Shown here in pieces: positions 13,354 to 47,312 of a stretch of 64,000 nt of DNA (positions within the stretch are counted from its first letter, which is position 1; each line of letters opens with the position of its first letter). The DNA comes from an uncultured Fibrobacterota bacterium (lineage in GTDB: Bacteria; Fibrobacterota; Chitinivibrionia; Chitinivibrionales; WJKA01), in assembly GCA_964589825.1 (NCBI GenBank), contig CAZPUS010000011.1:18628-82627 (forward strand), in the 5' to 3' direction. The translations under genes and the position numbers were made by a program. Under the pieces are notes generated by a model. That model saw nothing but the letters and a program-made list of their open reading frames with translations. It did not search any database and was not told the DNA's origin.

Positions 13354-13529
13354 CCTCGTGTTGCGTCCTTGAAGTAATGCGTTCACTTATGATACCGGAT
13401 AGAAAAAAACGCCATCTGTGGTTGCAGAGAAGATACGTACGTCTGCGGCCGGGTCGTTGTGTCCCGTTCTTGCATCTGCTATGTGGTGTCGTTTCGGTGC
13501 AGCTTCGATGACAACCGCTCAATTTAGGA
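13354..13529 (+). repeat. Degenerate full-length copy of the ~163-bp TIR element (copy L)
   Basis: The right end ...TTTCGGTGCAGCTTCGATGACAACCGCTCAATTTAGGA matches the family right end. The left end CCTCGTGTTGCG is a degraded left TIR. The interior is only partly alignable. Confidence 0.5.
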
Positions 13530-14099
13530 AGAAAATAATTTTTCGCCATGCGCACCAATGATTTCATGATATTGCCCGTATTCCTTTTTGGAAGGATCCT
13601 GCTGCGCAGGATACTGATTCGCAAGATACGATTCTTGTTGTCGAGTTGACTTTTTTTTTTCGGTGATGTACTATTATATGGCGCTCTGCAGCTTTTGTCA
13701 GAAACAGTGAACGACAGTTCTTGTGAATTCACGATACCTGTGTCCACCAAAAAACTGCGTATTTCCGCGTATATGAAGAAATAAGCGGAATATGCCCGGC
13801 TATTGAGCCCCCGGTTCTCTGCAAGCTGTTCCGGAACGAGTTTGCCCCCGTAAAACAAGCCTGTATTTTGTGAAATGAAGCATGCATATTGTATACGTAT
13901 CCCATAATAATTCAGCGTCATAACCCGTGATTAAACTGCTTTTGCCTGAGTCTGTGAGCAGAATATGAAAGGAGTGCTTGGCCGCAGCCACTGTATCATT
14001 AGTTATATTGTAAGCGACTGGTGTTGATGTGTGTCTGAGTGTGTTGCAGCATGCAGCAGTAACAATACCGATCGTGACGAACCTGCCTTTGGTTTATGT

Positions 14100-14564
14100 A
14101 TGAGAACTATCATTTATTCGATACTATTCTGCTGGTATATACTTATATCGGCCTTATCTGCGTCTGCGCAGTCGATGTCACCTGAAGATCCGTTTAGGCT
14201 GTATGATTCGATGTGTGTGCGCAATGTCACGGTGACCCGTACCCCGCGCATCGAGCAGGATACGCTTTCATTCCGTATGCAGCTCACCTTCGATACGTTG
14301 TTGTCGAATTATTTTTCCTATTATGAAGATGGAGACGATTCGCTCTTTATCCGCTTTTATGATGCGGTGATTGAGCCGGCACAAGAGCGTTTCCCGGGGT
14401 CATCACCCTTCAGGGGCCTGCGAACTGTCACTAAAGAAACCCGCAAGGCACTTTCGGGTACGTTCGGTGTTATCGCGATTCGTATCGATGGCGTGTGGCG
14501 GTATACGATCTCAGCGTCTCCCCCGGTGATGGAAATTGTGCTGTGGCGAATAATAGATGAATAA
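14100..14564 (+). CDS. Hypothetical exported protein
   Basis: The tracked ORF is 14031..14564. The Met at 14100 gives a clean signal peptide ([25 protein letters not shown]). I recognise no family. Confidence 0.45.
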
Positions 14565-14682
14565 TCGAAGAATAATCAGAGCCGTGCTATTGCATTCTTT
14601 AATGACACATACTATTTTTCTTTCGGGTAAACTGGCCAACCAATTTTTTTATTTTTTTTCACAAAAAACGAGGAAGGGGCAT

Positions 14683-15129
14683 ATGGCCAACAGAGGAGTA
14701 AACAAAGTGATTCTGATAGGCAATCTGGGAAAGGATCCCGAATTGCGCTATACTGCAAACGGGACAGCGGTCTGTCAGTTTCCACTTGCCACCACGGACA
14801 GAAAGGATACGACCGAGTGGCACAACATCGTAGTATGGAATAAGCTTGCCGAGGTGGCGAATCAGTACCTGAAGAAAGGGCGAACGGTTTATATCGAAGG
14901 GCGGATATCGACCAACTCGTGGGAAGACAAAGAGGGCAACAAGCGGTATCGTACCGAAATAATTGCCAACCAGTTGCAGTTTCTTGGCAATTCGGGACCG
15001 TCAGGCTCGGATGGAGGATCGCAGAATCAGAGTGCGGCATCCAAATCGGGCGCAGACGCGGATACGTCTCAGTGGGAAGCTTCACCTGCCGGTGATCAGT
15101 CGCCGGTCGAAGACGATCTTCCGTTTTAA
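14683..15129 (+). CDS. ssb: Single-stranded DNA-binding protein
   Basis: The OB-fold sequence [37 protein letters not shown]...[12 protein letters not shown] and the acidic tail DDLPF are present. An AGGAAGGGG Shine-Dalgarno lies 3 nt upstream of the ATG at 14683. The tracked ORF start at 14557 is an upstream extension. Confidence 0.9.
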
Positions 15130-15227: not shown

Positions 15228-15234
15228 ACTTTAA

Positions 15235-15325
15235 CCTGAATTGAGCGGTGACATTAATCACCGGGTAAGCAAGGACGTGCGGACATGAGGTGAACACAAT
15301 TCTTACAATGTGCTGAATGTATTTT
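15235..15325 (+). repeat. Truncated / internally deleted copy of the TIR element (copy A)
   Basis: It starts with an intact left TIR, CCTGAATTGAGCGG. The downstream sequence retains CATGAGGTGAACACAAT (fused internal blocks). The right boundary is uncertain. Confidence 0.45.
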
Positions 15326-16904: not shown

Positions 16905-17861
16905 ATGACGCAGGCTCGAATCGCTGTAGACGTAATGGGAGGTGATTACGGAACGCCGGTTCTGGTTGAAGGGGCTCTCCGAGCGCTTACACATGCAGAC
17001 GTTTCGGTAGAGCTTTTTTTGTGTGGCAACCGCACGCGTATCGAATCGGCGTTCGACGCATCCTCCTCCGAATATGGCAGCTGTATTCCACGCTGTCGTA
17101 TCGTAGATTGTCCCGAGGAGATTCAATCCTGCGACAGTCCCGCGCGGGTGTGGAAGCAAAAGCGCAAGGCATCTATTGTTCGGTGCATAAGTCTGCAACG
17201 GGAAGGGGAAGTCGATGCATCCGTAAGTGCGGGTGATACAGGCATACTCATGAGCGCTGCATTATTCGTGCTGGGAAGAAAAGAGGGGGTCAGCAGGCCC
17301 GCACTCGGTGTGCTTCTTCCGACCATTGCCGCATGTCCGTGTCTGCTTATAGATGTTGGCGCAAATGTGAACAGTAGAGGAACGCATCTTGTTGAGTTCG
17401 CACATATGGGATGCGATTATTTCATCAGCCATTTTGGTGCGCATGAACCCTCTGTTGCATTACTCAACATCGGTGAGGAGCCTTTGAAGGGAACGCGGGC
17501 GTTGGCACAGGCGGATGCGTGTCTCGGACAGCGGATGCCATCCGGGTACCGGGGCTATATAGAAGCAAATCAGGTGCTTACCGGAGATGTGGATGTTATC
17601 GTGTGTAATGGATTCGTGGGAAATGTACTGCTTAAAGCGTACGAGAGCTTTTATGTGGTAATGGGTTCGGTACTTCGTTCTTCGAACAAACAACTCAGCG
17701 ATCACCTTTCGAATGCGATGAGCATATTCAATCCTGAGCGGTACGGTGCGGCCCCGCTTCTGGGAGTGAACGGCATCGTACTTAAGGCGCATGGCGGCTC
17801 AACTGCCACCGCCTTTTCGAATGCAGTGCAAAATACCATTGCGCATATACATACGATTTGA
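16905..17861 (+). CDS. plsX: Phosphate acyltransferase PlsX
   Basis: 318-aa ORF with PlsX blocks (IAVDVMGGDYG; SAGDTGILMSAA; NIGEE..KG; GFVGNVLLK; LKAHGGS). Confidence 0.9.
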   Translation: MTQARIAVDVMGGDYGTPVLVEGALRALTHADVSVELFLCGNRTRIESAFDASSSEYGSCIPRCRIVDCPEEIQSCDSPARVWKQKRKASIVRCISLQREGEVDASVSAGDTGILMSAALFVLGRKEGVSRPALGVLLPTIAACPCLLIDVGANVNSRGTHLVEFAHMGCDYFISHFGAHEPSVALLNIGEEPLKGTRALAQADACLGQRMPSGYRGYIEANQVLTGDVDVIVCNGFVGNVLLKAYESFYVVMGSVLRSSNKQLSDHLSNAMSIFNPERYGAAPLLGVNGIVLKAHGGSTATAFSNAVQNTIAHIHTI

Positions 17862-17867
17862 TACGAA

Positions 17868-18050
17868 CCTGCACTGAGCGATTTTATATGCGAAACCCGC
17901 TGCCATCCGCACTGATCTTGCGTTATCCGGTAACAATGAGCAGGCCGACGAGAGTGGCCGTTCATTGTGAAGTACGCAATAACAGTACCGTTCACCGCAT
18001 CTTTCATCAAAACAATCGTTTTGTTTCGCACAAAAAACCGAATATTCAGA
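17868..18050 (+). mobile_element. TIR element copy B (plsX-fabD spacer)
   Basis: It aligns over its length with the other copies (CCTGCACTGAGCGATTTTATATGCGAAACCCGCTGCCATCCGCAC...CAATAACAGTACCGTTCACCGCATCTTTCATCAAAACAATCG...). The right end is partly duplicated/degraded (AACCGAATATTCAG). Confidence 0.7.
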
Positions 18051-18081
18051 AATAATATCATCATAAGCGTGAGGTGTACAT

Positions 18082-19014
18082 ATGACAAAAGACGCTGTCG
18101 TATTCCCGGGGCAGGGATCACAGACAGTCGGAATGGGGAAGGGCTTTTTTGACGCATACGAAGAAGCGCGTGCTATCTATACCATTGGCGCGAAGGTGCT
18201 GGGTATCGACATTGCTGCCCTGTGTTTCGAAGGGCCCAAAGAAGAGCTGCTGCGCACATACAACACCCAGATTGCGCTTTTTACCACGGAAGCGGCGATC
18301 AGCGCGGTGCTGTCGGCAAAGGGAGTTAAAGCGGCATTTACCGCAGGGCACTCTCTGGGGGAATACAGTGCGTTGTTTCACAGCGGTGCACTTGGCTTCG
18401 AAGATGGTTTGCGGCTTGTCGCCGCACGGGCTCAGCTTATGGATCAATCCACAAAGGAGACCGACGGAGCAATGGCTGCAGTGATCGGTCTGTCGGCACA
18501 TACGATCGATGAGGTGCTTTCGGGTATTACAAAAGGGTGTGTAGTTCGTGCCAACCAGAACAGTCCGGTGCAGACAGTGATATCCGGCGATACGGCATCG
18601 GTCGATGCAGCATGTGACGCTCTGAAAAATGCAGGAGCAAAACGCTGCAAGCACCTTGCGGTCAGCGGCGCGTTCCATTCACCGCTGATGCAGCATGCGG
18701 CCGATGAATTCGCAAAGGAGATAGAACAGGTGGAGTTTCGCAGGCCAGAAATCCCGGTGATCCCGAATACCACCGCGACGCCCGTCAGTGAGCCCGATCA
18801 GATTAAATTTGCCCTGATACACCAGATTACTTCACCGGTTCGCTGGGTAGAGACCGTGCAGACGATGTCTGCACAGGGGGTAGGCCGGTGTATGGAAGCC
18901 GGACCCGGAACGGTGCTTAAGGGATTGATTCGCAAAACGGACGATTCGCTGGAGGTTGTGTCGGTGCATACAGTCGACGACATACCCGGAGAGCACGCCG
19001 GTGGCGTTTCCTGA
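18082..19014 (+). CDS. fabD: Malonyl-CoA:ACP transacylase
   Basis: 310-aa ORF with FPGQGSQ, the active-site GHSLGEYSAL and the AFHSPLM blocks. Confidence 0.9.
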   Translation: MTKDAVVFPGQGSQTVGMGKGFFDAYEEARAIYTIGAKVLGIDIAALCFEGPKEELLRTYNTQIALFTTEAAISAVLSAKGVKAAFTAGHSLGEYSALFHSGALGFEDGLRLVAARAQLMDQSTKETDGAMAAVIGLSAHTIDEVLSGITKGCVVRANQNSPVQTVISGDTASVDAACDALKNAGAKRCKHLAVSGAFHSPLMQHAADEFAKEIEQVEFRRPEIPVIPNTTATPVSEPDQIKFALIHQITSPVRWVETVQTMSAQGVGRCMEAGPGTVLKGLIRKTDDSLEVVSVHTVDDIPGEHAGGVS

Positions 19015-19157
19015 GCCGTAGTAAGTGAAAGCAACTGTGTGGCGGCGGAAGATACGCCGATTCTATTCCTTGCACCAGCGAATCGAGGATGAATTTTGTA
19101 TGTGCGGCCGGCCGGTATTGTTCACATAACTGGTGTGTTGTAATGTATTTTATGTTA

Positions 19158-19319
19158 CCTGAGCAGAGCGATTTTGTGTGTGCGATTCGTTGTCATCTGC
19201 ACAGCTGTTTCGTCCCCGGAACAATGAACCGACCAACAAGGTTGATCCGTTATTTCCGAGAATACAATAACAGTACGATTCACCGCAGCGTTAATAAAAT
19301 AGGATCGCTCGGTGCAGGT
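19158..19319 (+). mobile_element. TIR element copy C (fabD-fabG spacer)
   Basis: The left end is CCTGAGCAGAGCGATTTTGTGTG and the right end is GATCGCTCGGTGCAGGT. Internal blocks ATGAACCGACCAACAAGG and CAATAACAGTACGATTCACCGCAGCG are present. The flanking 4-mers are GTTA/GTAA (3 of 4 identical). Confidence 0.8.
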
Positions 19320-19374
19320 GTAAATGTTTTATACCATTGTGCACGCGTGATGATGAAATAAAGGAGATGAACCT

Positions 19375-20121: not shown

Positions 20122-20130
20122 GGGTGTATA

Positions 20131-20213
20131 CCTGAGCAAAGCGATTTTGTGTGTGAAATTTGCCGTCATTTATACCGCACGAGTGTTCCCTTATAATGAT
20201 GAGTCAACCATTA
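20131..20213 (+). repeat. Left-half copy of the TIR element (copy D, fabG-acpP spacer)
   Basis: CCTGAGCAAAGCGATTTTGTGTGTGAAATTTGCCGTCATTTATACCGCAC...CCCTTATAATGATGAGTCAACCA matches the left ~85 bp of the family, then the similarity ends. Confidence 0.6.
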
Positions 20214-20278
20214 ATATGTAAGGAGATGACGAAGATTTCATAAATTATTATTTCAACGTATATATCCAATGAAAGGAG

Positions 20279-20518: not shown

Positions 20519-20527
20519 GCCGATGAA

Positions 20528-20569
20528 AGTACCCTGCACCGGTGTATGCCGGTGCGGAGTGTACTTTTT
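20528..20569 (+). terminator. Rho-independent terminator / attenuator after acpP
   Basis: AGTAC-CCTGCACCGG-tgtatg-CCGGTGCGG-a-GTACT is followed by TTTT. It lies 10 nt after the acpP stop, the classical position of a partial terminator between acpP and fabF. Confidence 0.6.
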
Positions 20570-20852
20570 GTAGTGACCCGGCGTTGATTATTCCGATACA
20601 TGCGCGACGTTTCGGTTTTTGTGGCAGCTATGACGGATAACCTTTTTATGGAGACAATGGTATATTGTGTGCATTGAAGCCGTACCAACGCGTTCCCGGC
20701 AGTGTATCTTTTTCGTGTGCGCAGCAATGCAGTTCTCGTGTGACAGTATTACGTCACGGCATAGATTCGAATAATGGAGCACGGGCTGACGTGTTACGGT
20801 ATATGCACTTTTCTAACATGATATTCAACAACCACATCAGGAAAAAGAGTGT

Positions 20853-26913: not shown

Positions 26914-27516
26914 TTATACGTGGTAGCGGTCGGAAAAAAAAGTGACAATTGCGCTGTCGTAAGTACTCGTGTGTTTAAAGGCCTTGACAGCAAGATCTTG
27001 TCGGGTGGAAAGATCGGTTCCCCCTTCCCGGGATATCTGCTGCGCAATCCGCGGGTAATCGGTCGGTTCGACGACCACGGTGACATACTGGTGGTTTTTT
27101 GCGGCGCTTCGTATCATTGTCGGGCCACCGATATCGATATTCTCGATGGCGTCATTCGTTTCGACATTGGGATCGGCGACTGTTTTTTCAAACGGATAGA
27201 GATTCACGACCACGAGATCGATTGGCGCAATGGAATGGTCCCGGCTTTCGTGTATATCGCCGTCGTGGTCCCGGCGGAAAAGAAGACCCCCGTGGATTTT
27301 GGGGTGAAGCGTCTTGACGCGTCCATCAAAGATTTCCGGAGAGCCGGTATACTCACTTACCGCAGTAACGGCGACGCCTCCCTGTGTCAGAGCACGCGCC
27401 GTTCCTCCGGTGGAGAGGATCTCTATTTTATGGGATTGCAGAGTTTGTGCGAACTCAACCACCCCCTCTTTATTTGATACGCTTATCAGTGCACGACGAA
27501 TGGGGCTTTTTTCCAT
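26914..27516 (-). CDS. IMP cyclohydrolase domain protein (PurH N-terminal MGS-like domain only)
   Basis: 200-aa ORF matching the first ~200 residues of bifunctional PurH ([15 protein letters not shown]; STGGTA; [15 protein letters not shown]; LVVVNLYPF; [16 protein letters not shown]). The ORF stops there, and topA begins 82 bp downstream, so no AICAR transformylase domain follows. Confidence 0.75.
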
Positions 27517-27560
27517 ATATTAGTTCCCTCGGATAATGAAACATAAGTAATAAAATTATA

Positions 27561-27723
27561 CCTGAATTGAGCGAGTTTGTTTGCGGGATCTGCTGCCGGC
27601 CGTACTTCTCTTATAATTTCGAAACCTATGAGACAACCAACAAAGTCGCACCATAATATTCGAGAACACAACAGCAGCGCGGCTCACCGCAGCTTTTATC
27701 AAAATAACCGCTCAATATTAGGT
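27561..27723 (+). mobile_element. TIR element copy E (reference copy)
   Basis: The 163-bp sequence runs CCTGAATTGAGCGAGTTTGTTTGCG...CAAAATAACCGCTCAATATTAGGT. It is flanked by a perfect direct repeat TATA (27557-27560 and 27724-27727). Confidence 0.85.
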
Positions 27724-27994
27724 TATATAAAATGGTTTATTGTACATGCCGGGGGCAAATCGGCTGCGTGCGATCGATCCCGATTAGCTGTTATCCAGAG
27801 ACAGAACCTTGTGGTATCTCAATCGGCAAAAGTGGAAACTCCCTGTCTTCAGGATAAAGAATGGGCATGCGCAGTGGAAATGCCTTAAGTGTCAAAAAAA
27901 GGTGGGAAGCCTCCGACCTAACCTTTGCCGGTATCAGTCGATAGACGGACAGCCCTCGACATTGAGCCGAGGGCGCTTTGGCTGCGACGCAGGA

Positions 27995-28198
27995 TTATAT
28001 CTTTCCCGACTGTACCAGCTGTGCGAAGTTTCCGAATGATCTGTCATACGTACGCTCCACATCATCGGGGAATACGCATGCAGGCAGTTCCCGGGCACGA
28101 AGATGATACTGCAGGCATTCGCAGCAACGTCCCTTTCGCGGGCATGGTTCGTAGGTACAATTACAATGCTGCATGTTTTTTTCCTGGCTGCATTCCAT
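27995..28198 (-). CDS. Small cysteine-rich protein (DUF6485-like)
   Basis: The last 67 codons of tracked ORF 27995..28495 read [55 protein letters not shown]..., which I recognise as a small conserved Cys-rich family. The upstream part of the tracked ORF runs through repeat copy F and is not coding. Confidence 0.6.
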
Positions 28199-28271
28199 AC
28201 GGCACCTCCAGTATGTTTTATGGTGACGGGTGTTCGGTAAATACACTATTTTTCCATGGATAAAAATACAA

Positions 28272-28430
28272 CCTGAACAGAGGGTTGTATTGATAAACGC
28301 TGCGGTGAACCGTGCTGCTGTTGCGTTTCGGAAATGACAGGAGAACACTTTGACGGGATCTTTATTTCCGGGGATGCAGGTGCAGTGCTGATGGAGGCAG
28401 ATAACGCACACAACATCGTACAGTTCAGGC
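28272..28430 (-). mobile_element. TIR element copy F (inverted orientation)
   Basis: It is the reverse complement of the family (CCTGAACAGAGGGTTGTATTGATAAACGCTGCGGTGAACCGTGCTGCTGTTG...CGTACAGTTCAGGC). It is flanked by a perfect direct repeat ACAA (28268-28271 and 28431-28434). Confidence 0.85.
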
Positions 28431-28493
28431 ACAAGCTGATTTGTAATGGCGTGGCGGCTACTCATGTAATCCGAAAATAGCAGAGGGGAATGC

Positions 28494-29480
28494 ATGGATC
28501 AAATGCACTTTTATACCGATATCGTATTTCTCAATGTGCTGCTTATGGCGGCGGGCTTCCTCATGCTTGTCAAAGGCAGTGACTGGTTCGTGGAATCATC
28601 CGCCGATATCTCACGAAAGTACAATATTCCGCAGATGGTCGTCGGACTTACTATCGTGAGTATCGGAACCTCGCTTCCGGAGCTTGCGACCAACGTGTAC
28701 GCCACCATTACCGGCGAGGTAGGTATTGCACTCGGAAACATTCTGGGAAGTAACATCGCCAATGTATATCTGGTACTGGGTATCGCGGTGGTCTTGTATG
28801 GCAGAATATCGATTTCGCGTAAGTTTCTTAACAGAGATGGATTGTTTCTTCTTGGAATTTATCTGCTTTTTGCGGTTTTTGCCTGGTTCCCCGCCGACAC
28901 TCATATGCTCAACACCATGGAATGCGGGGTGTTTCTCCTACTGCTGGTGGGCTATTGCGTATATCTTTTTACCAATACCGATGTAATGCAAGAGGAGATG
29001 CCGGAAGAAGCGAAGCATGTTCATTTTACCCGTGCGAGCGTGGCATGGTTGTTTCTTGGTGTCGGGCTGATCTGCATAATTGTCGGTGCAAAGCTCATTG
29101 TCGATAATGTGGTCAAGATCGCGAATGATTTCGATATTCCCAAACCGATAATTTCGGCTACGGTTGTGGCATTCGGAACTTCGGTTCCCGAGCTTGCGGT
29201 TACTATCTCCGGGGTGATTAAAAAGAAAAACGCGATCGCGCTCGGCAATATAGTCGGAAGCTGTATTTTCAACATCCTGCTGGTACTCGGCGCGGTGGGA
29301 GTGCTCAGTAATGTGGATGTGGATTCGAATTCAATGTTCTTTCTTACCCCGCTTATGGTATCCTCAGGAGCGTTGCTGTTGCTGTTTATGCGCACCGGAA
29401 GGGCGCTGGTCAGAGTTGAAGGGGTGGTTTTTCTGGTGTTGTATTCGGCGTATATCGCGTATAATGTGGTGTTGATGTAA
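28494..29480 (+). CDS. Ca2+/cation (Na+) antiporter, CaCA family (YrbG-like)
   Basis: 328-aa polytopic ORF with the two alpha-repeat signatures [11 protein letters not shown] and [11 protein letters not shown]. Confidence 0.8.
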
Positions 29481-29505
29481 TCAAGAGGGAGGTCATTTAC
29501 GTACA

Positions 29506-30392: not shown

Positions 30393-30554
30393 TCAAAAAC
30401 CAGTGCGGAAGAGAGCTGCGGAGTGTATACCTGCATAAGCGACGTTGAGATGTGAGAGCGTGTATTGTCGTATTCGTATCTCAGAGCCCCTTGATTTTTT
30501 ACAGGTAACCATCACTACAGCCGATGATGTCTCACCTTACACGATAGAGCGATT

Positions 30555-31034: not shown

Positions 31035-31044
31035 GTTACTGTTA

Positions 31045-31206: not shown

Positions 31207-31245
31207 TTTACACATATTCATTCACATTGTTGGAAAAAACCGCGT

Positions 31246-32145
31246 ATGAAAGATATCCTTGGGACGTTGAAAAAAGAGCGCAATGCGGTAATCCTCGCAC
31301 ATAATTATGAAGAAGCAGCGGTACAGGATCTTGCCGATTTTGTGGGCGACTCGCTCGAATTGAGTCGAAAAGCCGCACAAACCGATGCAGAAGTGATCGT
31401 TTTCTGCGGTGTGCGATTCATGGCGGAAACCGCGAAAATCCTTGCCCCTGACAGGACCGTATTGCTTCCGGTGGCCGAGGCCGGTTGCCCCATGGCGGAC
31501 ATGATAACCGTATCTGCGCTGCAGCAGCTTACCGATGCGCATCCCGACGCAACAGTCGTGTGTTACGTAAATACTTCTGCAGAGGTAAAGGCGCATAGTG
31601 ACATATGCTGTACCTCGTCCAATGCGGTGGAAGTGGTTCAAAACGCATGCCCGGAAGATCGGGAAGTTATTTTCATCCCGGACAAAAACCTGGCAGCGAA
31701 TACCGCCCGGGCACTCGGACGCAGTTTTATCGTATGGCAGGGGTATTGCCCCGTACACGCGGCAATGACACTGCACGATCTCTCATGCATTCGGCAGCAG
31801 CACCCCGAGGCACTGGTTATGGTACATCCGGAATGCGATCCGGCGGTATGTGAGCGTGCGGATGCGGTGGTTTCAACTGGTGGTATGTGTCGCTATGCGC
31901 GCCAAAACCGGGCATCCGAAATAATCGTCGGTACTGAAGTGGGTATGTTGTATCGGCTGCAAAAGGAAAATCCTCGGACGCGTTTTTATCCTCTGTCTGA
32001 CAGAGCAGTATGCGCGGACATGAAGCGTATCGGCCCCGAGACCGTTATTTCGTCCTTAAAGGAGAACAGGCATGAAATCACTCTTTCGGAGGAGGTGATT
32101 CACTATGCACGAAAAAGCATTACACGGATGCTTGACATACGCTGA
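31246..32145 (+). CDS. nadA: Quinolinate synthase
   Basis: NadA blocks are present (ILAHNY; FVGDSLELS; FCGVRFMAETAKIL; AGCPMADM; VCYVNTSAEVKA; CTSSNA; HPEC). I place the start at the Met at 31246 (MKDILGTLKKE...), because the tracked TTG start at 31192 lies inside repeat copy H. Confidence 0.9.
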   Translation: MKDILGTLKKERNAVILAHNYEEAAVQDLADFVGDSLELSRKAAQTDAEVIVFCGVRFMAETAKILAPDRTVLLPVAEAGCPMADMITVSALQQLTDAHPDATVVCYVNTSAEVKAHSDICCTSSNAVEVVQNACPEDREVIFIPDKNLAANTARALGRSFIVWQGYCPVHAAMTLHDLSCIRQQHPEALVMVHPECDPAVCERADAVVSTGGMCRYARQNRASEIIVGTEVGMLYRLQKENPRTRFYPLSDRAVCADMKRIGPETVISSLKENRHEITLSEEVIHYARKSITRMLDIR

Positions 32146-32347
32146 AGGTCGTATCGTTTTCGGCAGCTGTGCAGGGGAAGAAGGGATTATGTATTTTTAA
32201 GGGCGTGTTTTTTATATTACTCCGCGCATGAGGGCGTATCGGCGGGATGGGGTGACTGCCTCTGTGCAGTGACAACTCGATGGCGCAGATTGCAGACGCT
32301 TTTGCGATTAAAGGAGCGCCATTGGCGCATAAATAATCGAATTCAAA

Positions 32348-32509
32348 TTTGAATTGCGTGATTGTTTTCATGAAAGCTGCAGTGTGCCGCCCTGTTATTA
32401 TGTTCTCATAAATGACAGGTCAATCTTGTTGGGTGGTGCATCATTTACGGGAGCACAAGTGCAGTGTGGATGGCAGCAAGTTTCACGAATAAAATCGCAC
32501 AGTTCAGGT
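32348..32509 (-). mobile_element. TIR element copy I (inverted orientation, nadA-metA spacer)
   Basis: It is the reverse complement of the family (TTTGAATTGCGTGATTGTTTTCATGAAAGCTGCAGTGTGCCGCCCTGTTATTATGTTCTC...AAAATCGCACAGTTCAGGT). The flanking 4-mers are CAAA/CACA (3 of 4 identical). Confidence 0.7.
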
Positions 32510-32540
32510 CACACATTAAAGTTACCCGGCAGCTTTTATC

Positions 32541-33434
32541 ATGACTATAGTAGTTCCCAAGGATTATCATTTAATCAACGCACTGGAGCAGCGGCGCGTA
32601 GAATGCATCGATCAGACGAGAGCGCTTCGGGAAGAAATCCGGGCCTTACGTGTTGGTATTCTGAACATTATGCCGCAGGCAGAACAATATGAATACCATT
32701 TGCTCGTACCGCTTGGCAGAAGTGTTATACAGATCGAGCCGGTATGGCTTCGGCTCAAATCGCATAATTATTCAAGCAGCAGCAGAGAGCATCTCGACAA
32801 TGTATATGTCACTTTTGAGCAGGCGAATACCGAACGCCATCTTGACGGTTTGCTCGTGACCGGTGCGCCGGTGGAGGAAATCCCCTTCGAGGATGTGTCA
32901 TACTGGAATGAAATTATCGAGATTATGACCTTTGCACAACACTACAATATTCCCACTCTTGGTATATGCTGGGGTGGGCTTGCACTGGCCAGGTTTCTCG
33001 GGATGGAAAAAGTGAAGTACGACAGGAAGCTGTTCGGGGTATATGAAACCAGAAATGTCGATCGTACACATCGAATTACCGGTGAAATGGATGATGTGTT
33101 CTGGTGTCCCCAGAGCAGACATTCCGGCATCCGAAATCAGGTGCTCGAGCAACAGAGTAAGCAAGGCAATATCAGGCTGCTGGCCTATTCGGATGAGGCG
33201 GGCTACGTTATATTCGAAAGTATGGATGGGATTTTTCTCATGCATCTGGGTCACCTCGAGTATGATGCTACCCGTCTTGTAGAGGAATATTACCGGGATA
33301 AAAAGAAGGGCCGTACCGATGTAGAGCCGCCAAAGAATCTTGATCTGAACAATCCGGTCAATCGGTGGCGCGCGCATTCGCTGGAATTTTTTCAACAGTG
33401 GATTAAATACCTTCACGACAGAGTCGCGTTCTGA
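32541..33434 (+). CDS. metA: Homoserine O-acyltransferase (MetA family; succinyl or acetyl donor not determinable)
   Basis: 297-aa ORF with MetA blocks (ALRVGILNIMP; GLLVTGAPVEEIPFEDVSYWNE; the active-site GICWGG; PQSRHS). Confidence 0.9.
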   Translation: MTIVVPKDYHLINALEQRRVECIDQTRALREEIRALRVGILNIMPQAEQYEYHLLVPLGRSVIQIEPVWLRLKSHNYSSSSREHLDNVYVTFEQANTERHLDGLLVTGAPVEEIPFEDVSYWNEIIEIMTFAQHYNIPTLGICWGGLALARFLGMEKVKYDRKLFGVYETRNVDRTHRITGEMDDVFWCPQSRHSGIRNQVLEQQSKQGNIRLLAYSDEAGYVIFESMDGIFLMHLGHLEYDATRLVEEYYRDKKKGRTDVEPPKNLDLNNPVNRWRAHSLEFFQQWIKYLHDRVAF

Positions 33435-36617: not shown

Positions 36618-36749
36618 ACTATCCCGTTACTGCCGTCAGGCATTGAATGCCCTTGATTGGTTTTTGGATGTAGCGTATTTCTGTTATATATAGTACGTAT
36701 ACGCCATATAAAAATATTATTTTGCATCGGGTGGTATTGGTGAATTGGA

Positions 36750-36912
36750 CCTAAATTGAGTGATTTTGTTTGCGCAATTTACTGCAATCCGCACTACTCT
36801 TAATTTTCTCCAAAAGCATGAGACAACCAGCACACTTGCTCCATGGTTTTCGAGAACACAATAGCAGCACTGCTCACCGCAGCTTTCATCAATACAACCT
36901 CTCAATTTAGGC
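36750..36912 (+). mobile_element. TIR element copy J (inserted into the 3' end of a glycosyltransferase gene)
   Basis: CCTAAATTGAGTGATTTTGTTTGCGCAATTTACTGCAATCCGCAC...CTCACCGCAGCTTTCATCAATACAACCTCTCAATTTAGGC. It is flanked by a perfect direct repeat TGGA (36746-36749 and 36913-36916). The right TIR supplies the last codons and the stop of gene 36902..38059. Confidence 0.85.
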
Positions 36913-38059
36913 TGGATGTAATATCCCGGTACAGTTTTTCAAGCTGGATGCGGGCATTGAAATAATTACGTATCCTTTGGTATGCACGCGCCCCATCTTT
37001 GCGGATATATTCGGGATGAGCGGCATAGCGGCACAGCGCATCCGCAAAGCGCTGCGTGTCACCGTATGGCACCAGGATACCGGTTTGCGCGTGCTCGATG
37101 ATTTCGGTTACTCCCCCCGAATCAAACGCAATGGAAGGCAGCGCGCAGGCGCCGGCTTCCGCCACCACACGGCCGAACGGTTCGTTGCGTGACGCAATGC
37201 AGAACACATCATGGGAGCGCAGCGTGGCAGTTACTTCACTGGTAAACGGTTGGAGTATACAGCAATTCCCCAGTCCGTGTCTTTCAATTTGTTGTTGCAG
37301 CATTTGTCGGTATTGCTGTGGCCAATATGCCGTGTCGCCCACAATGGAGAGTGTGATACCGGTAGCCTCTGCGCATCGTGAATATGCGTCGGCGAATGCA
37401 TCGATAAGCAGATGGCAGCCCTTCCAGGGTACCACGCGGCCCAGATAAATAAACCTGACCGTGTTGTCGTTGCGCCGTTGTGGTGTGGTGGGCTCAGGCA
37501 GGTGTACGCCGTTGTATATTACCCGTGCATGATTCTGAAGCGGCGGTGCCAGGTTTTTTTTTACGTGCGTACTTATTGCGATAAGGTGACACCGCTCTCT
37601 ACGGGGGAACAAAAGCTCGTAAAGCCGTCTTACCCGCTGTCCGGGCTCGAAAAGCTCCCGCATATGAATAAAATACGTCGGTTTTTTGAGAACGCGGGCC
37701 GTGCACATAACGAGTATATGCGCTTTGGGCACGTTTGCATGAATGATATCAGGATGCAGACGTTGCATAGTCCTGCCCGCTGCGATGCAATAGCGAAAAT
37801 ACGAAAAAAGTGCAAAGAGACGCACCGGGTGCGTCAAAACCAAACCGTCTCTGCGCAGCCCTTCGATACTGCGGCTGCAGGGGATCACATGGCACTCGAT
37901 CCCAAGTTCGTGAGCCTGTTGTGTCAGCGCGCCTTTTTCGGACGTGATCAGATGAAGCCGGTGATTACCGGTTTCGGCAAAGTATCGAAGAATATCCAGC
38001 AGAGATTTTTCGGCTCCTCCGATTCGTCGTGCCCAGTGATTGACGAACACGAAAGTCAT
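36902..38059 (-). CDS. Glycosyltransferase, GT4 (GT-B fold)
   Basis: GT4 features are present (N-terminal GGAEKSLLDIL; C-terminal E-x7-E region PFGRVVAEAGACALPSIAFDSGGVTEII). I prefer the start at 38059 (MTFVFVNHW...), which makes an ATGA overlap with the upstream gene. The tracked start is 38074. Confidence 0.8.
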   Translation of the reverse strand: MTFVFVNHWARRIGGAEKSLLDILRYFAETGNHRLHLITSEKGALTQQAHELGIECHVIPCSRSIEGLRRDGLVLTHPVRLFALFSYFRYCIAAGRTMQRLHPDIIHANVPKAHILVMCTARVLKKPTYFIHMRELFEPGQRVRRLYELLFPRRERCHLIAISTHVKKNLAPPLQNHARVIYNGVHLPEPTTPQRRNDNTVRFIYLGRVVPWKGCHLLIDAFADAYSRCAEATGITLSIVGDTAYWPQQYRQMLQQQIERHGLGNCCILQPFTSEVTATLRSHDVFCIASRNEPFGRVVAEAGACALPSIAFDSGGVTEIIEHAQTGILVPYGDTQRFADALCRYAAHPEYIRKDGARAYQRIRNYFNARIQLEKLYRDITSSLN

Positions 38060-39162
38060 GCCGCGGTACTCCATAAAAAACGATTCAGAACACGCTCATA
38101 GCCGCATTTGACAAGTCGTGTGTACAATTCGCTGTCATGGTAGAGCCTTTGCAAATGTGCGGCACATTCTTCGCTGTTTCCGGCCGGAAAAACAAGCCCG
38201 CACTCGCCAACTGCATCGGGAAGACCACCGGCATTGCTTGCGATCACCGCCCTGCCGTGTGCCATGGCTTCAAGCGCGGTAATGCCGAAGCCTTCTGTTT
38301 CGTGTGAAGTCTCGATCGATGGGACCACACACACATGGGCCTGACGGTAAAGCTCTTCTTTTTCCTGTTCGTCTACCGACGTCTCGAGTGTAATACGCTC
38401 TCTGAAGCCGCTTTTTTCTATACGCTCGCGAAGCGGCTTTTCCAAGGGCCCCTCTCCGGCCAGAATCAGCCGCCATGGGATATCAAAGCGGCATAATTCG
38501 CAGGCCCTGATGAGGATGTTCTGCCCCTTTACTTTTACCAACCGGCCCAGGCAGAGAATAATATATGGATCGAATGCCATCGATTCGGATTGTATGCGTC
38601 CCGGATCCAGATCTCTGCGTTTTGTGAGTACTGCGGGGGGTATATCGAGACGGGGAGGAACGTGTCGTGTCGCCGTGTCTATCCCGAGCCGAAAGATTAG
38701 GGACTCGGTGTATGATCCGAGTACATAGATAAGCGAAGCCCGTTGCATTGCCCGACGAAGCAGGGCGGGGTATATACCCCATCGCCCTGCATGCAGCAGT
38801 TCGGTACCGTAGGTGTACACACGATACGATACAGGCATAAAAAAGGAACAGATGAATGGTATCAGAGCTGCATAGATATTTCCGCATTCCGTGACAGGCT
38901 GGGCATGCCGATGCCGGCGAATACAACGCATATACACACGCAAAAGAGAGGGAAGCGACAATTTTTTGTTAACTCCGGACGCAAAGTTGGAAACGAACCT
39001 TATCCGCGCCGAGTATGAACCCGGTTTTGCCGGGGGCGGTGTATATGCACAGCCGACAAGGACGATGTCATCGCTTTCATAGCGGTATTTTACTATATCC
39101 TTCAGATATGTCTGAATGCCACCTCGTTGTGGAGGGAAATCGAGTGTGAGAAGAATTTTCAT
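38056..39162 (-). CDS. Glycosyltransferase, GT4
   Basis: 368-aa ORF with a GT4 C-terminal motif (EGFGITALEAMAHGRAVIASNAGGLPDAV). Confidence 0.8.
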   Translation of the reverse strand: MKILLTLDFPPQRGGIQTYLKDIVKYRYESDDIVLVGCAYTPPPAKPGSYSARIRFVSNFASGVNKKLSLPSLLRVYMRCIRRHRHAQPVTECGNIYAALIPFICSFFMPVSYRVYTYGTELLHAGRWGIYPALLRRAMQRASLIYVLGSYTESLIFRLGIDTATRHVPPRLDIPPAVLTKRRDLDPGRIQSESMAFDPYIILCLGRLVKVKGQNILIRACELCRFDIPWRLILAGEGPLEKPLRERIEKSGFRERITLETSVDEQEKEELYRQAHVCVVPSIETSHETEGFGITALEAMAHGRAVIASNAGGLPDAVGECGLVFPAGNSEECAAHLQRLYHDSELYTRLVKCGYERVLNRFLWSTAA

Positions 39163-42834: not shown

Positions 42835-44938
42835 GAGGTGTATTCCCGAAGCAATATGGTTTATTCGGTTTATTATCCACAGTCAAGGTCGAAAGTGCGT
42901 GTTCCATTCGTGCGACCTGTCTGGACCACCGGTGCCGTTGTGCACTGTGCGCGGCGTGTGTGCCGATATGCTGGTATTCCCGGGCATGAGCGTATATTGA
43001 AGAGATAAACTTACTGTCGCATGTCACATCGTTTCCGTGAAGCAGAAACCCGTTGCAGCCATGACGTATGAACTCCCTGTGTGCACGTATGGGGCTTGCA
43101 AATACCATGCAGCCGTGTGTCATCGCTTCGAGCAGAGCAAGACTGTGTCCCCCTTCATAGCGTGATGCGGAAATCACGAAGGGGCAGTACGAATACCATT
43201 GCGACATCGAGTCCATTGATTCGTGTGCTATGGTGTAAACCGTTAACTTCGGGTGTGAGGTCAGGTTCGAAATGAGTGTTACACCGCGAGTGCCGACCCC
43301 TACGAGGTATAACGAAATGCGGGTGTCTGATCTTTGAGCCCATTCATTGCATATCGAATGCACATAGTCGATATTTTTTCGTTGTGAGTATTGCCCGACC
43401 GCAAGTACACGAAGCGGGACGTCACGACCAAAGCGGTGCACCGGTGTAACGGGTGTCACTCCGGTGGGTACATAGCGCAGTTTGTGTGCCTGTTGCGGAT
43501 AGTGGTATGTGAGCCAGCGCATGTCGGCCACTGTTTCACACACGCACAGATGGGCGGTGTGCAGATGCAGCCGAAGCAGTGGAAAACGAAGCAGCCTCGA
43601 TTTCCATGCCCCGGCATGCAGCAGGTTTTGAACCCGGGATACAGCTGCAACCTCTTCCCAGCCGTGATTGTGAAGAAGGCAGCGAGTCTGCAGCCGAAGC
43701 AGTCGTATCAAACATGCACACACGACACCGTCGGTCGATCTTGCGATAATCACATCCGGAACACGGGGACTGAGCAGCGCTGCCAGAAACCGTATCCCGC
43801 ACGTAAGGGCAAACACAAAATCATGGTGACCGCCTTTGTTGTAAATGTTTCGGGTTATATACCCCCGCATGGCCAGCCCTTTCATCTGTTGGTGCATGAC
43901 CCGGTGCACTCCCCCTTGTGACCCGGGAGGAATGGAAGCGAGATACCAGACACGTCTGATGTGGCGCAACTGCGTCGGAATACGCGATGCAAAACAGAGA
44001 GAAAGCAAATATTTCGGCAGCAGACACAATGCGGCGACCTGTTCGGTACACGCGGCGATACAGAGAGCGGCGGTATGCAGCGGATGTTTTACAAGCTGCG
44101 AGAGGCTTCTTCTTCGAAGCTGCGTAATACCGCTTTTTGCGATAAGAGCCATATGGGTCCGCAATGCGGTTGAATAATGGCGAATGCGGCGGTAGCCGGT
44201 CGGGTGAAGCCGGTAGATGTGGTACTCCGACGACAGAATTGAGTCGATTCTGGCAACAGAGTCACGAATATAGCGCAAAATCGCAACGTCTCGTGATCTG
44301 TGGCACACATGCAACAGAGGACGGAACACAATCGAGCCTCCGGCGAGCATTCGCAGGGCGAGTTCCTGATCCTCACCCGAGGGCTTTCGTGCATTAAACG
44401 AGGTATCGAACAATCCGCACTCCTTCAGCCTCTCTTTTCTGTAAACGATATTACAGCTCAGAAATGCACCGCCGGAGTGGACCTGGACCTCTCGATCCCA
44501 GATGCCGTCTCCCTGGGCCGAAACAGCTCCTTCGATACCCACCACCGACAGATTCGTATTCAGCGACGTTGTGTATTCGTGTACTCTGTCAAGCCATCGC
44601 GGCAGCAAAATGATGTCGTCATCGAGAAACGCGCACCATTGCCCGCGGCATGTGCGAATACCCGTGTTGCGGGCGGCAGCCGCTCCCCGTGGTATTGTGT
44701 GACGGATATATCGTATTCCGAATCTCGCGCATAACGACGCAATGTAACTCGAAGTTGCACGATGAGAATGATCATCGACCACGATTATTTCGGTATCCTG
44801 CGCAGAGGACATCTCCTGGCGGTAAAGCGCGTTCAGCAGGCAGGTAATAGATTCGGGGCGGTCTCTGGTCGGGACGATTACAGAGACGGGGAACCGATTC
44901 GCATGCATTGAATCAGGTGACGATACGTGTTGAGGCAT
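42824..44938 (-). CDS. Bifunctional glycosyltransferase (N-terminal GT2 fused to C-terminal GT4)
   Basis: 704-aa ORF. The N-terminal half has GT2 motifs (VSVIVPTRDRPES; IIVVDDHS; FLDDDI). The C-terminal half has GT4 motifs (SRYEGGHSLALLEAMTHGCMVFASP). An alternative Met start at 44908 would shorten the overlap with the upstream gene. Confidence 0.75.
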   Translation of the reverse strand: MPQHVSSPDSMHANRFPVSVIVPTRDRPESITCLLNALYRQEMSSAQDTEIIVVDDHSHRATSSYIASLCARFGIRYIRHTIPRGAAAARNTGIRTCRGQWCAFLDDDIILLPRWLDRVHEYTTSLNTNLSVVGIEGAVSAQGDGIWDREVQVHSGGAFLSCNIVYRKERLKECGLFDTSFNARKPSGEDQELALRMLAGGSIVFRPLLHVCHRSRDVAILRYIRDSVARIDSILSSEYHIYRLHPTGYRRIRHYSTALRTHMALIAKSGITQLRRRSLSQLVKHPLHTAALCIAACTEQVAALCLLPKYLLSLCFASRIPTQLRHIRRVWYLASIPPGSQGGVHRVMHQQMKGLAMRGYITRNIYNKGGHHDFVFALTCGIRFLAALLSPRVPDVIIARSTDGVVCACLIRLLRLQTRCLLHNHGWEEVAAVSRVQNLLHAGAWKSRLLRFPLLRLHLHTAHLCVCETVADMRWLTYHYPQQAHKLRYVPTGVTPVTPVHRFGRDVPLRVLAVGQYSQRKNIDYVHSICNEWAQRSDTRISLYLVGVGTRGVTLISNLTSHPKLTVYTIAHESMDSMSQWYSYCPFVISASRYEGGHSLALLEAMTHGCMVFASPIRAHREFIRHGCNGFLLHGNDVTCDSKFISSIYAHAREYQHIGTHAAHSAQRHRWSRQVARMEHALSTLTVDNKPNKPYCFGNTPHER

Positions 44939-45987
44939 GTAGTCGGACTGCTCCTGCTGATGTGTTCGAAATGACGGATTCCTTCGAGAGCCTTACGAGA
45001 CCAGTAGCTGGTATGTACGGCACAATCCTTAATTCCATCCGAAATAGAAGCTAAGGATGAGGGGTTGACAAAACGGGCACAATCACCGCATGTTTCCCGC
45101 AGCGGGGGTATATCAGAAACCACAGCCGGACATCCCTGCTGCATTGCTTCCAGGGGCGGCAGCCCGAGGCCTTCATGCAGTGAGCAGAAAAGCAGACCGC
45201 TGCACTGCTGAAGATGTGCAGTGTAGTGCTCCATGGTATCGTATTCGATATTAACGCCGGTGGGCATCGATGCGTACGTCTTGATATCGTCGTTTATCGA
45301 ATCGCCTAGGATGCAGAGAGAGTAGTCGGGGTACGACTCGGCGAAATGCTGAAATGCACGCACTACGCTCGCGGTGTTTTTGTTAGGACCACCCGCCAGC
45401 GTGATAAAATATTTTTTTCTCGCAGTATCGGGGGATGAAGCGGCATGCACCGAAAGGGGAGGGTAAAGAAGTTGTGTACGATTGTGTACCCGGGGAAAGC
45501 GCTTTTCTACCTGTTGCTGCGTATGCCCGGATACACAAAATATTCGGTCGAATGTAGAAAGTATGTGCGTCTGTACACGCCAGTAAAGGCTGCGGCGTAC
45601 TGCCTCGGTATGCGGGATATAGGGCCAGTTTTCTACACCGAGATCGTGTACCGTGGCGCATACACGGCAGGGATGAATGAATCCTGATCCCATTCTAAAA
45701 ATCGGACCGAGGCTTACCCAGTAATGGAGTACATCGATGCGGTAGCGAAGGATGAGCCACGGTATTATGATACCGTCGACTTTCCAGTCGCCGCGTGAAC
45801 AATACGGAATATAGTGAATACGATCATCGGCCAGCAACGGGGCAATGCGTCGTGAATCTCCCCACACGAAAAGGGTGAAATCGCGTGGGAGTTTACACAG
45901 GGCGCGGCAGAGCTGCCGCGCATAAGTGCCCACACCGCGTATGCCGTAACGATGCGAAAAAAGTCGTAAATCCCACAGCACTCTCAT
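44878..45987 (-). CDS. Glycosyltransferase, GT4
   Basis: It carries a GT4 C-terminal motif (SLHEGLGLPPLEAMQQGCPAVVSDIPPLRE). The start at 45987 (MRVLWDL...) forms an ATGA overlap with the upstream gene. The tracked start is 45996. Confidence 0.8.
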   Translation of the reverse strand: MRVLWDLRLFSHRYGIRGVGTYARQLCRALCKLPRDFTLFVWGDSRRIAPLLADDRIHYIPYCSRGDWKVDGIIIPWLILRYRIDVLHYWVSLGPIFRMGSGFIHPCRVCATVHDLGVENWPYIPHTEAVRRSLYWRVQTHILSTFDRIFCVSGHTQQQVEKRFPRVHNRTQLLYPPLSVHAASSPDTARKKYFITLAGGPNKNTASVVRAFQHFAESYPDYSLCILGDSINDDIKTYASMPTGVNIEYDTMEHYTAHLQQCSGLLFCSLHEGLGLPPLEAMQQGCPAVVSDIPPLRETCGDCARFVNPSSLASISDGIKDCAVHTSYWSRKALEGIRHFEHISRSSPTTCLNTYRHLIQCMRIGSPSL

Positions 45988-47108
45988 ACGTTGCATATCT
46001 CCCTGTAGTGAGCAAAAATCCGCCGAGCCGATTCCCGAAAAGACCAGTTGGCGCGGTAGGCGGTCATGGCACGTGCCAGACGTCGCTGCAGCCCGCGTGT
46101 CTCGATTATCCGCTGAATGTGCCGTCGCACCTCTTCCGGATCAAAGGAGGACAGCTCCATAACCGGCTCGCGAGAGCGGATCTCCCGAGTCAGGTCGATA
46201 TCGGTGGCGACGATATACCGTCGGGCACCAATAAGAGTGGCAAGACTGCTGGAGCAGGACCGGGACGAAAAGAGGGCCAGAGCGATATCCAGTGAAGTGA
46301 GAAGCGTGGTACGATGTGCATCGTCGACCCAGTGAGTGATGGTAAAGCGGTCACTCATACCATATCGCTCGAGTTGTTCACACAGACGGGAGTAAAGGCC
46401 GTGGTCACAGCCGCGGCGAATAGTGCCGATCCAGAAAAAATGCCAGGGAATTTCGAGCCGTGAAAGTGTTTCCAGAAGAAGTGTATAGTCGTACTGGGGA
46501 TTGATGAATCCGATCGTCCCGAGAAGAAGCGGAGATTGCTCGGTAAAGTTTTTGTGGCTGAGTCGCGGCGGCTGGGGTGCCGCAACATCGGGAACCGGCA
46601 TGGGAATGTGGTTTATTTTCGACGTATCGACGCCTTTATGGCCAAGCAAATCGATATGATATCGCGCATGCACAAAAAGCCTGTGTGCAAAAAAATCATG
46701 TTTCAGGTGACGGCGATACGCCGTTGCTGCAGGGTGACGTATATCGTAGACGGCTTTTTTGGCAATTCGAAGCGGTAGCGGCCCTTCGATTTGTTCGCGC
46801 GGAAAGACGCCCGGCAGTTGTTCATATACCTCGTGAAGCGTGACACATACCGGTACGGTAAGACGACGGCACAAAAAGCGGTACCGGTCTCCCCGGTGAG
46901 AGAGCCACTGTGACGTTTCGTACTGAATATGAACGCAGTCACACGCATTGATGCGTGCGGCACAGGCCCGCGGGGAGGTGCTGCACTGCCGGGGCGTGAA
47001 CCGTTCGATTCGGCACAGGGGATGTAACTGCTGCAGATATCTCTCCGAATAGATCGAGATTCCGCAGCGTGCGCTATCGGGTGCGATCCATGCGATTTTT
47101 GGCGTCAT
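45984..47108 (-). CDS. Glycosyltransferase-like protein (GT-B/GT4-like, divergent)
   Basis: 374-aa ORF in the glycosyltransferase run. The architecture resembles GT4, but the canonical E-x7-E is not obvious by eye. Confidence 0.55.
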   Translation of the reverse strand: MTPKIAWIAPDSARCGISIYSERYLQQLHPLCRIERFTPRQCSTSPRACAARINACDCVHIQYETSQWLSHRGDRYRFLCRRLTVPVCVTLHEVYEQLPGVFPREQIEGPLPLRIAKKAVYDIRHPAATAYRRHLKHDFFAHRLFVHARYHIDLLGHKGVDTSKINHIPMPVPDVAAPQPPRLSHKNFTEQSPLLLGTIGFINPQYDYTLLLETLSRLEIPWHFFWIGTIRRGCDHGLYSRLCEQLERYGMSDRFTITHWVDDAHRTTLLTSLDIALALFSSRSCSSSLATLIGARRYIVATDIDLTREIRSREPVMELSSFDPEEVRRHIQRIIETRGLQRRLARAMTAYRANWSFRESARRIFAHYREICNV

Positions 47109-47149
47109 AGCGCATAGGTTCCTGTTGGACTCACGGTACGTATTTGTAA

Positions 47150-47312
47150 CCTGAATAGAGCGATTGTGTGTGCGGGATGTGCTGCAATCCGCACTACTCT
47201 TATATTTTCAAAAATACTGAAGACAACCGACAGGGTTGCCCCATGGTTTTTGAGGACACAATAGCGGTACGCCTCACCGCAGCTTTCATCAAAACAACCG
47301 CTCAGTTCAATT
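47150..47312 (+). mobile_element. TIR element copy K (inside the polysaccharide gene array)
   Basis: CCTGAATAGAGCGATTGTGTGTGCGGGATGTGCTGCAATCCGCACTACTCTTATATTTT...CCTCACCGCAGCTTTCATCAAAACAACCGCTCAGTTCAATT. The flanking 4-mers are GTAA/GAAA (3 of 4 identical). Confidence 0.8.

Follow-up and report, generated by a model that had tools for sequence, protein, structure and literature searches.

A stretch of 64,000 nucleotides from an uncultured Fibrobacterota bacterium (contig CAZPUS010000011.1; below, the window) contains many copies of a non-coding repeat of about 161 bp. The repeat family is real, and its abundance is far beyond chance. The element is very probably a miniature inverted-repeat transposable element (MITE). 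Taken as a whole, the observations are well explained by a new family of non-coding palindromic MITEs that makes target-site duplications of the form TNNNA and probably owes its mobility to an IS1380-type transposase whose gene lies elsewhere; we hold this explanation with good confidence.

The family was recovered alike by a repeat search, an nhmmer profile and a covariance model (R1), all applied to the 64-kb window. The repeat search yielded families of 50-159 nt in the places where a preliminary description of this DNA had put them, and two degenerate patterns built from the copies had 9 and 8 matches in the window, against 0 expected from shuffled sequences. The inventory comprises eight full-length copies, one degenerate full-length copy, one internally deleted mini copy, one left half and two or three terminal remnants, which makes 13-14 copies and remnants, ten on the plus strand and three on the minus strand. 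The eight full-length copies lie within 1 nt of the positions described before and have nhmmer E-values of 1e-39 to 1e-47. Twelve copies had been counted originally: the eight full ones stand, some of the other boundaries and classes do not, a mini copy at 7189-7274 had been missed, and a weak match at 54387-54410 is possible. Copies occur on both strands and in spacers, as had been noted; of the 21 spacers that measure 100 bp or more, 13 are occupied. Element DNA totals 1,721 bp, or 2.7% of the window, and accounts for about a quarter of the DNA between genes. Locally there are 125-200 copies per Mb, a value that applies to the 64-kb window and is not extrapolated to the whole genome. Pairwise identity among the copies is 59-83%. 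The copies at 27560, 31044, 36749 and 47149 form a subfamily (76-83% identical), and the remaining copies branch deeply. A Logan assembly of run SRR13334649 is identical (100%) to the window at 18033-19347, copy 19157-19319 included. Since this assembly is independent, the copies are not an assembly artefact.

Exact scans for interior patterns found no further copy in the GTDB representative genomes or in the JGI metagenomes; each gave a single chance match without the element (L002 and L005, respectively). Two exact-pattern scans of IMG/VR found no copy, and blastn of the consensus against plasmids gave short chance matches only. Among the MITE families accessible to a search, none has the sequence of the element, which represents a new family of a well-known kind.

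The core of the element is about 161 bp long (158-162 bp) and reads 5'-CCTGAATTGAGCG...CGCTCAATTCAGG-3'. The terminal helix consists of 14 pairs, and 85% of these are intact in the eight full copies; inverted repeats of at least 10-15 bp are expected of a MITE. The imperfect terminal inverted repeats had been recognised before, but the symmetry is not confined to the ends: an imperfect palindrome spans the whole element, and the nhmmer profile and the covariance model match each copy over its full length on both strands (E 1e-14 to 1e-7). The length falls within the range of MITEs (about 50-800 bp with no transposase open reading frame, ORF). The earlier statement that the element is too short to encode a transposase was borne out. 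There is no conserved reading frame: stops or frame-shifting indels interrupt every frame in one copy or another; the three codon positions do not differ significantly in variability (24/31/39); and a search of 5.8 billion proteins with a profile of the translated copies gave no match. A coding hypothesis was considered for the frame MKAAVSRAAIVFSK..., which is open in several copies, and was rejected, as this frame has stops or indels in the others and no codon-position signal. Scans found no consistent promoter or terminator inside the elements, and a weak terminator-like stem was present in three copies only.

The flanks of the copies contain significant direct repeats. At the left junction T-NNN-A is followed by CCTG, and at the right junction CAGG is followed by T-NNN-A. 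If the ends are set at CC...GG, the two flanks of a copy agree over 5 bp at 29 of 35 positions (mean of permuted flanks 19.0), and none of 1854 flank permutations reaches 29. In this phase one of the seven analysable copies has a perfect duplication (TTATA) and six agree at four of the five positions, whereas lengths of 3, 4 and 6-10 bp give no duplication signal with the same ends. If the ends are set at A...T (A-CCTG...CAGG-T), a 3-bp repeat is seen at 17 of 21 positions, with three copies perfect and again 0 of 1854 permutations. The offset scan places T before the left triplet (-4) and A after the right triplet (+4) in all seven analysable copies, so that each reads TNNNA, CCT...(A/G)GG, TNNNA, a regularity that depends on choosing the 5-bp phase. 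Both readings yield one and the same sequence, and the empty site expected from either is TNNNA; they cannot be separated from the sequence alone. The preferred reading is a duplication of 5 bp at TNNNA, since this takes one assumption, a palindromic TNNNA target, and the 3-bp reading takes two. A length of 5 bp lies within the 2-10 bp of MITE target-site duplications. The preliminary description had reported flanking direct repeats, which are there, and had proposed either of two phases for them. For the 4-bp phase there is no signal, whichever ends are chosen, and its 4-mers are sub-strings of the 5-mers; the other, a 3-bp duplication with terminal A...T, is equivalent to the 5-bp TNNNA reading.

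The termini resemble those of insertion sequences (ISs) of the IS1380 family. ISEcp1 has the left inverted repeat CCTAGATTCTACGT and makes AT-rich 5-bp duplications, TAATA, TAAGA and ACTCA (PMC6061673). The ends of ISEcp1, IS1678, ISSsu5 and IS1247 were read from annotated plasmid records. Those of ISEcp1 are CCTAGATTC and CCTAAATTC (also read as CCTAGATTCTACG and CCTAAATTCCACG), with the left flank TCATA. IS1678 has CCTGAATAATTCA at both ends, within a perfect 5-bp duplication (GATAG/GATAG); ISSsu5 likewise ends in CCTGAATAATTCA; and the ends of IS1247 are CCCACATT and CCTGCATT. At the terminal motif CCTGAAT(T), the sequences compared are CCTGAATA in IS1678 and ISSsu5, CCTAAATT in ISEcp1 and CCTGCATT in IS1247. 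The MITE terminus CCTGAATT agrees at seven of eight anchored positions with IS1678, with ISSsu5 and with the right ends of ISEcp1 and IS1247. The first seven bases of the terminus CCTGAATTGAGCG (CCTGAAT) are the same as in IS1678 and ISSsu5, and the variant terminus CCTAAATT, found in the copies at 31044 and 36749, agrees with the right end of ISEcp1 at all eight. Three IS1380-type traits were found, namely CC...GG abutting the duplication, a duplication of 4-5 bp and a family-like terminus. The likeness consists of the CC...GG ends, the terminal motif CCYRNAT(T) and the AT-rich 5-bp duplication; TAATA, TAAGA and TCATA of ISEcp1 fit TNNNA, as does the target of the MITE. On the other hand, the ISs of this family are 1.65-2 kb long and carry a transposase gene, whereas the MITE has 161 bp and none. 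Its interior, a foldback palindrome, has no relation to any of the IS1380-family ISs fetched, the similarity ends after about 8-13 nt, and no cognate IS is known in the lineage. Judged from these terminal sequences, assignment of the element to the IS1380 family specifically is somewhat favoured. Transposases of the IS1380 family, which are bacterial relatives of eukaryotic piggyBac, have been used as the outgroup to piggyBac (PMC10813416). A text search of the literature found no paper describing an IS1380-derived MITE, which is not proof that none exists.

One possibility is that the element is a MITE of a different IS family, for instance IS982 or another family with 3-bp or 5-bp duplications, and we consider this rather unlikely. 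IS982 elements are characterised by conserved AC at the ends, by inverted repeats with the consensus AC(N)6T(N)5TT, and by target duplications that range from 2 to 10 bp and measure 3 bp in ISDds4, ISNeu2 and ISPsma1 (PMC7335449). The element would then be ACCTG...CAGGT, with the end ACCTGAATTGAGCG and a 3-bp duplication, a reading statistically equal to the 5-bp one; written as ACCTGAATT..., it begins with AC (positions 1-2) and carries T at position 9. However, in ACCTGAATTGAGCGATTTT the TT of the consensus comes one position late, the A must be counted as part of the element, and an additional T...A target preference must be supposed for the T at -4 and the A at +4. Moreover, the agreement at seven of eight anchored positions is with members of the IS1380 family, a comparison in which IS982 was represented by its published consensus only. 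IS982 had been considered first because of the AC ends, and was demoted by the offset scan and the IS1380 comparisons.

Support for insertion of the MITE comes also from the fab operon. Three successive spacers of the operon plsX-fabD-fabG-acpP-fabF carry insertions. The host represents a deep lineage within the Fibrobacterota, and its FabF is 65% identical to its best non-self matches, which come from metagenome-assembled genomes of Chitinivibrionales/Chitinispirillaceae. In two relatives (L003 and L004) the gene order is plsX-fabH-fabD-fabG-acpP-fabF-rnc, and the spacers, of 29-54, 114-131 and 62-66 nt, do not contain the element. Without the elements, the lengths in the window would be about 36, 194 and 77 nt, which correspond to those of the relatives. 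It thus appears that the elements inserted into spacers that the ancestor already had.

The proposal of a non-autonomous MITE, made in the preliminary description, is supported, as the predictions that can be tested on the window all hold. The element is short and non-coding, has terminal inverted repeats and significant duplications, occurs in both orientations, is confined to spacers, and has left decayed and deleted derivatives. By ORF coordinates, its orientation relative to transcription of the flanking genes is mixed, roughly 4 versus 7. No transposase is encoded in the window, as had been stated: none was found by Pfam among about 60 ORFs, and tblastn with the transposase of ISEcp1 (IS1380) gave nothing better than E = 2. 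The enzyme that mobilises the copies in trans would be a DDE transposase, most likely of the IS1380 family, whose gene lies elsewhere in the genome. It would bind the CCTRAAT termini and cut at TNNNA with a stagger of 5 bp, and gap repair would leave the duplication. At their informative inner positions the duplications are 81% identical (about 19% diverged), while the copies differ from each other by 17-41%. These values suggest old insertions, for which the source elements were probably diverse already. Considered with the truncated copies and solo ends, they point to a family that is probably largely inactive now and mostly decaying. Copies in operons would be co-transcribed, and the mRNA would then contain hairpins of about 45 pairs, which may affect its processing or stability.

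When folded, each copy is one long hairpin, with z between about -2 and -4 for the strand as drawn. The complementary strand folds better, with z of about -5 for the better copies and a gain of 5-21 kcal/mol. Many shared positions are G.U on the complement and A.C on the strand as drawn, which accounts for its better folding. This asymmetry is inherited rather than private to the copies, and thus may simply reflect the founder sequence. RNAalifold gave 45 consensus pairs and -21.8 kcal/mol for the complement, with an unfavourable covariation term (+1.17), and a weak structure of -3 kcal/mol for the plus orientation. The element may have originated as a MITE and have been domesticated since, the hairpin being under selection and acting on the operon mRNA by RNase III processing, stabilisation or attenuation. 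Such effects at the mRNA level have been reported for ERIC and Correia elements. The strong folding of the complement would agree with domestication, as would the position of copies within an essential operon with rnc downstream and the better conservation of paired columns. Further, 87.4% of the pair cells are intact despite the divergence of the copies, against 84.8% in shuffles; none of 500 shuffles reaches the paired percentage or the covariation score; and double-change cells number 12, with 6.5 expected. However, kinship alone can beat shuffles without any structure, and the consensus structure was derived from the same eight full copies on which it was tested (n=8). A double change occurs in only 5 of the 45 pairs. 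Substitutions found in single copies produce 12 G.U pairs and 15 A.C mismatches, and as the latter are as frequent as the former, the strands do not show the asymmetry that selection on the RNA would be expected to produce. Together with the unfavourable covariation term, the mixed orientation to transcription and the many truncated or degenerate copies, this makes domestication unlikely in our view. More doubtful still is the composite claim that this would be the first bacterial MITE family of the IS1380/piggyBac lineage, saturating the spacers of a deep-branching member of the Fibrobacterota, those of the essential fab operon included, with the hairpin retained because it punctuates the transcripts of operons, for instance as a signal for RNase III or for stability.

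That the element is not mobile but a REP/BIME-like or other structured repeat (a functional RNA or a protein-binding DNA palindrome) spread by recombination, which was the main alternative in the preliminary description, would suit the palindromy over the whole length, the intergenic sites and the conserved interior blocks, but is highly improbable, given the significant target-site duplications, the occurrence in both orientations with no orientation bias, copies that abut stop codons or even supply one, the element-free fab spacers of the relatives, the private A.C changes being at least as numerous as G.U, and a length of about 161 bp, several times that of a REP unit. The properties of REP/BIME sequences, which are 20-40-nt palindromic units without duplications and with a RAYT transposase, were not found, and no such transposase gene is present in the window. 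Searches of Rfam 15 gave no match over the window at gathering thresholds and none over 27400-32600, a region with five copies, at E <= 10.

Several points weigh against a MITE family moved by an IS1380-type transposase. The likeness to IS1380-family ends covers the first 7-8 nt only, plus CG at positions 12-13 for ISEcp1. IS1380A (ends TCGACGC) and ISSp1 (ends CCTAAC and CTTAGC), both alphaproteobacterial, fit poorly, and thus the motif belongs to a part of the IS1380 family. The CC...GG phase of the duplication is chosen by analogy with IS1380, since both readings give an identical sequence. No autonomous partner was found in the window. The nearest relatives have FabF only 65% identical, and the support that their spacer lengths give for empty sites is indirect. 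Finally, column identity is 83.5% at paired and 76.5% at unpaired positions (p = 0.011), and these better-kept stems, with the excess of intact pairs over shuffles, hint at a constraint on the hairpin beyond neutral decay.

The individual copies are as follows; gene names beside them are from Pfam, and the seven full copies starting at 19157, 27560, 28271, 31044, 32347, 36749 and 47149 were defined by nhmmer, the covariance model and flank analysis. The full copy at 17867-18050 (+), in the plsX/fabD spacer (nhmmer E = 2e-42, covariance model E = 2e-28), starts 5 nt past the plsX stop codon; it had been listed as near full-length, which is correct, and contains about 20 extra nt near its right end. 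The copy at 19157-19319 (+), core 19158-19318, in the fabD/fabG spacer, has the flanks TGTTA and TGTAA and is the one found identical in the Logan contig (L001). The copy at 27560-27723 (+), core 27561-27722, has the perfect 5-bp duplication TTATA/TTATA. The copy at 28271-28430 (-) lies in the divergent spacer between a DUF6485 gene and a Na/Ca-exchanger gene and has the flanks TTGTG and TTGTA. The copy at 31044-31206 (+), between the gene of an Rrf2 regulator and nadA, starts 9 nt past the Rrf2 stop codon and has the flanks TGTTA and TTTTA; that at 32347-32509 (-), in the nadA/metA spacer, has TGTGA and TTTGA. The flanks are TTGGA and CTGGA for the copy at 36749-36912 (+), and TGTAA and TGAAA for the copy at 47149-47312 (+), which is situated between two minus-strand genes of a polysaccharide cluster.

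The other copies are incomplete. The mini copy at 7189-7274 (+) arose by an internal deletion that joined about 40 nt of the left end to about 40 nt of the right end (covariance model E = 0.012; nhmmer pieces 7197-7231 and 7234-7273); its left flank TAATA is followed by CCTA. The region 13354-13529 had been described as a degenerate full-length copy, but only its right 45 nt or so, 13485-13529 (+), are recognisable (nhmmer 13498-13528, E = 0.13), where TTTCGGTGCAGCTTCGATGACAACCGCTCAATTTAGG can be aligned by eye with the consensus right end. The truncated copy that had been assigned to 15235 to about 15325 does contain element sequence; however, this is limited to a solo terminus, ACCTGAATTGAGCGGT, at 15234-15249 (+), preceded by TTTAA. 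It is an exact 16-nt match to the consensus terminus, of which about 3e-5 are expected in 128 kb. The truncated copy in the fabG/acpP spacer was placed correctly (20131 to about 20213 in the earlier account): it is a left half at 20130-20215 (+), starting 8 nt past the fabG stop codon and covering nhmmer model positions 1-80 (E = 3e-10). The minus-strand copy that had been given as truncated at 30290-30392 has indeed lost an end, but it extends over 30289-30451 by the covariance model (E = 2e-4) and is a degenerate full-length copy in which only the left terminus is missing. In nhmmer, 30290-30416 corresponds to model positions 33-162 (E = 8e-14), and the intact right end is followed by TAAAA. 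The possible right-end remnant CAAAACAATCGTGCAGTTTAAGT at 54387-54410 (+) is weak (nhmmer E = 1.7; 17 of 23 consensus positions by eye) and is not relied on.

Three copies start 5-9 nt after a stop codon (stop codon/copy start 17861/17867 for plsX, 20121/20130 for fabG and 31034/31044 for Rrf2), and there may be a preference for, or a tolerance of, insertion just downstream of genes. The gene fabH, which lies between plsX and fabD in L003 (649-2577) and L004 (1038-3943), is absent from the corresponding region 16905-19014 of the window, and no ACP_syn_III domain was found in any window ORF scanned. Its position is occupied by copy 17867-18050, the sole copy with an aberrant right end. It is conceivable that fabH was lost by a recombination deletion between two copies. 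The acpP-fabF spacer (20519-20852) has 334 nt, compared with 84-127 nt in the relatives, yet contains no recognisable copy; a strong terminator-like hairpin is located at its start, at 20534-20557.

Some ORFs overlap the copies. Copy 36749-36912 supplies, at 36902-36912, the last three codons and the stop codon of a glycosyltransferase ORF (36902-38074, minus strand). An ORF of 193 aa without a Pfam match (13340-13921, minus strand) crosses the right-end remnant at 13485-13529, and its 3' part may be spurious or element-derived.

The ORFs scanned with Pfam are ordinary chromosomal genes. They include yceD, plsX, fabD, fabG, acpP, fabF, rnc, topA, nadA, metA, an Rrf2 regulator gene and a polysaccharide cluster, and also ExbBD/TonB genes and genes of large TPR proteins. 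Directly upstream of topA, an ORF of 200 aa (26914-27516, minus strand) encodes an MGS-like domain (that of IMP cyclohydrolase), and of the AICARFT domain the first 58 positions alone are present; the gene is a purH that has been truncated or else encodes a stand-alone cyclohydrolase. Two minus-strand ORFs with TPR repeats, 54771-58064 (1097 aa) and 57877-61395 (1172 aa), overlap by about 190 nt and adjoin the ExbB/ExbD/TonB cluster. The former covers 55.9-56.9 kb, and the plus-strand ORFs at 54.7-57.9 kb are its shadow ORFs. A 45-nt direct repeat with 71% identity (43181-43225 and 55625-55669) lies within two coding regions and is probably due to chance.

Bacterial MITEs are well known, and in kind the present family is unsurprising; it is notable mainly for its local density and for the insertions in the fab operon. 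The Correia elements (NEMIS) of Neisseria are similar in that they have about 100-155 bp, are bounded by inverted repeats and make a target duplication. They are present in hundreds of copies, about one per 8 kb, in intergenic and often co-transcribed positions. They differ in their TA duplication, their unrelated sequence, the phylum of the host, and documented promoter, IHF and RNase III functions. ERIC/IRU and YPAL of enterobacteria, RUP of Streptococcus pneumoniae and bcr1 of the Bacillus cereus group are imperfect palindromes of 100-170 bp, regarded as MITE-like, and occur in transcribed spacers in both orientations; their sequences and target duplications are unrelated to those described here. 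To our knowledge, none of these four has been attributed to IS1380. In Microcystis aeruginosa NIES-843, MaeMITEa-h have 176-429 bp and account, with 517 copies in 5.8 Mb, for 1.8% of the genome (PMC2779907). Their sequences are unrelated to the present element, whose local density is higher (2.7%, measured on 64 kb only). The maximum in a census of MITEs is 123 per Mb, in Wolbachia (PMC11602168). Within the 64-kb window, the density of the present element equals or exceeds the highest genome-wide values of the census and of Microcystis.

As the scans made found no copy outside this genome, the element can serve as a lineage-specific marker. It explains several spurious or extended ORFs, and should be masked in annotation of this lineage. 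The three insertions in an essential operon are a natural case for the study of how operons tolerate long hairpins. If the link to IS1380 is true, MITE formation would extend to the bacterial relatives of piggyBac, with TNNNA as a defined target.

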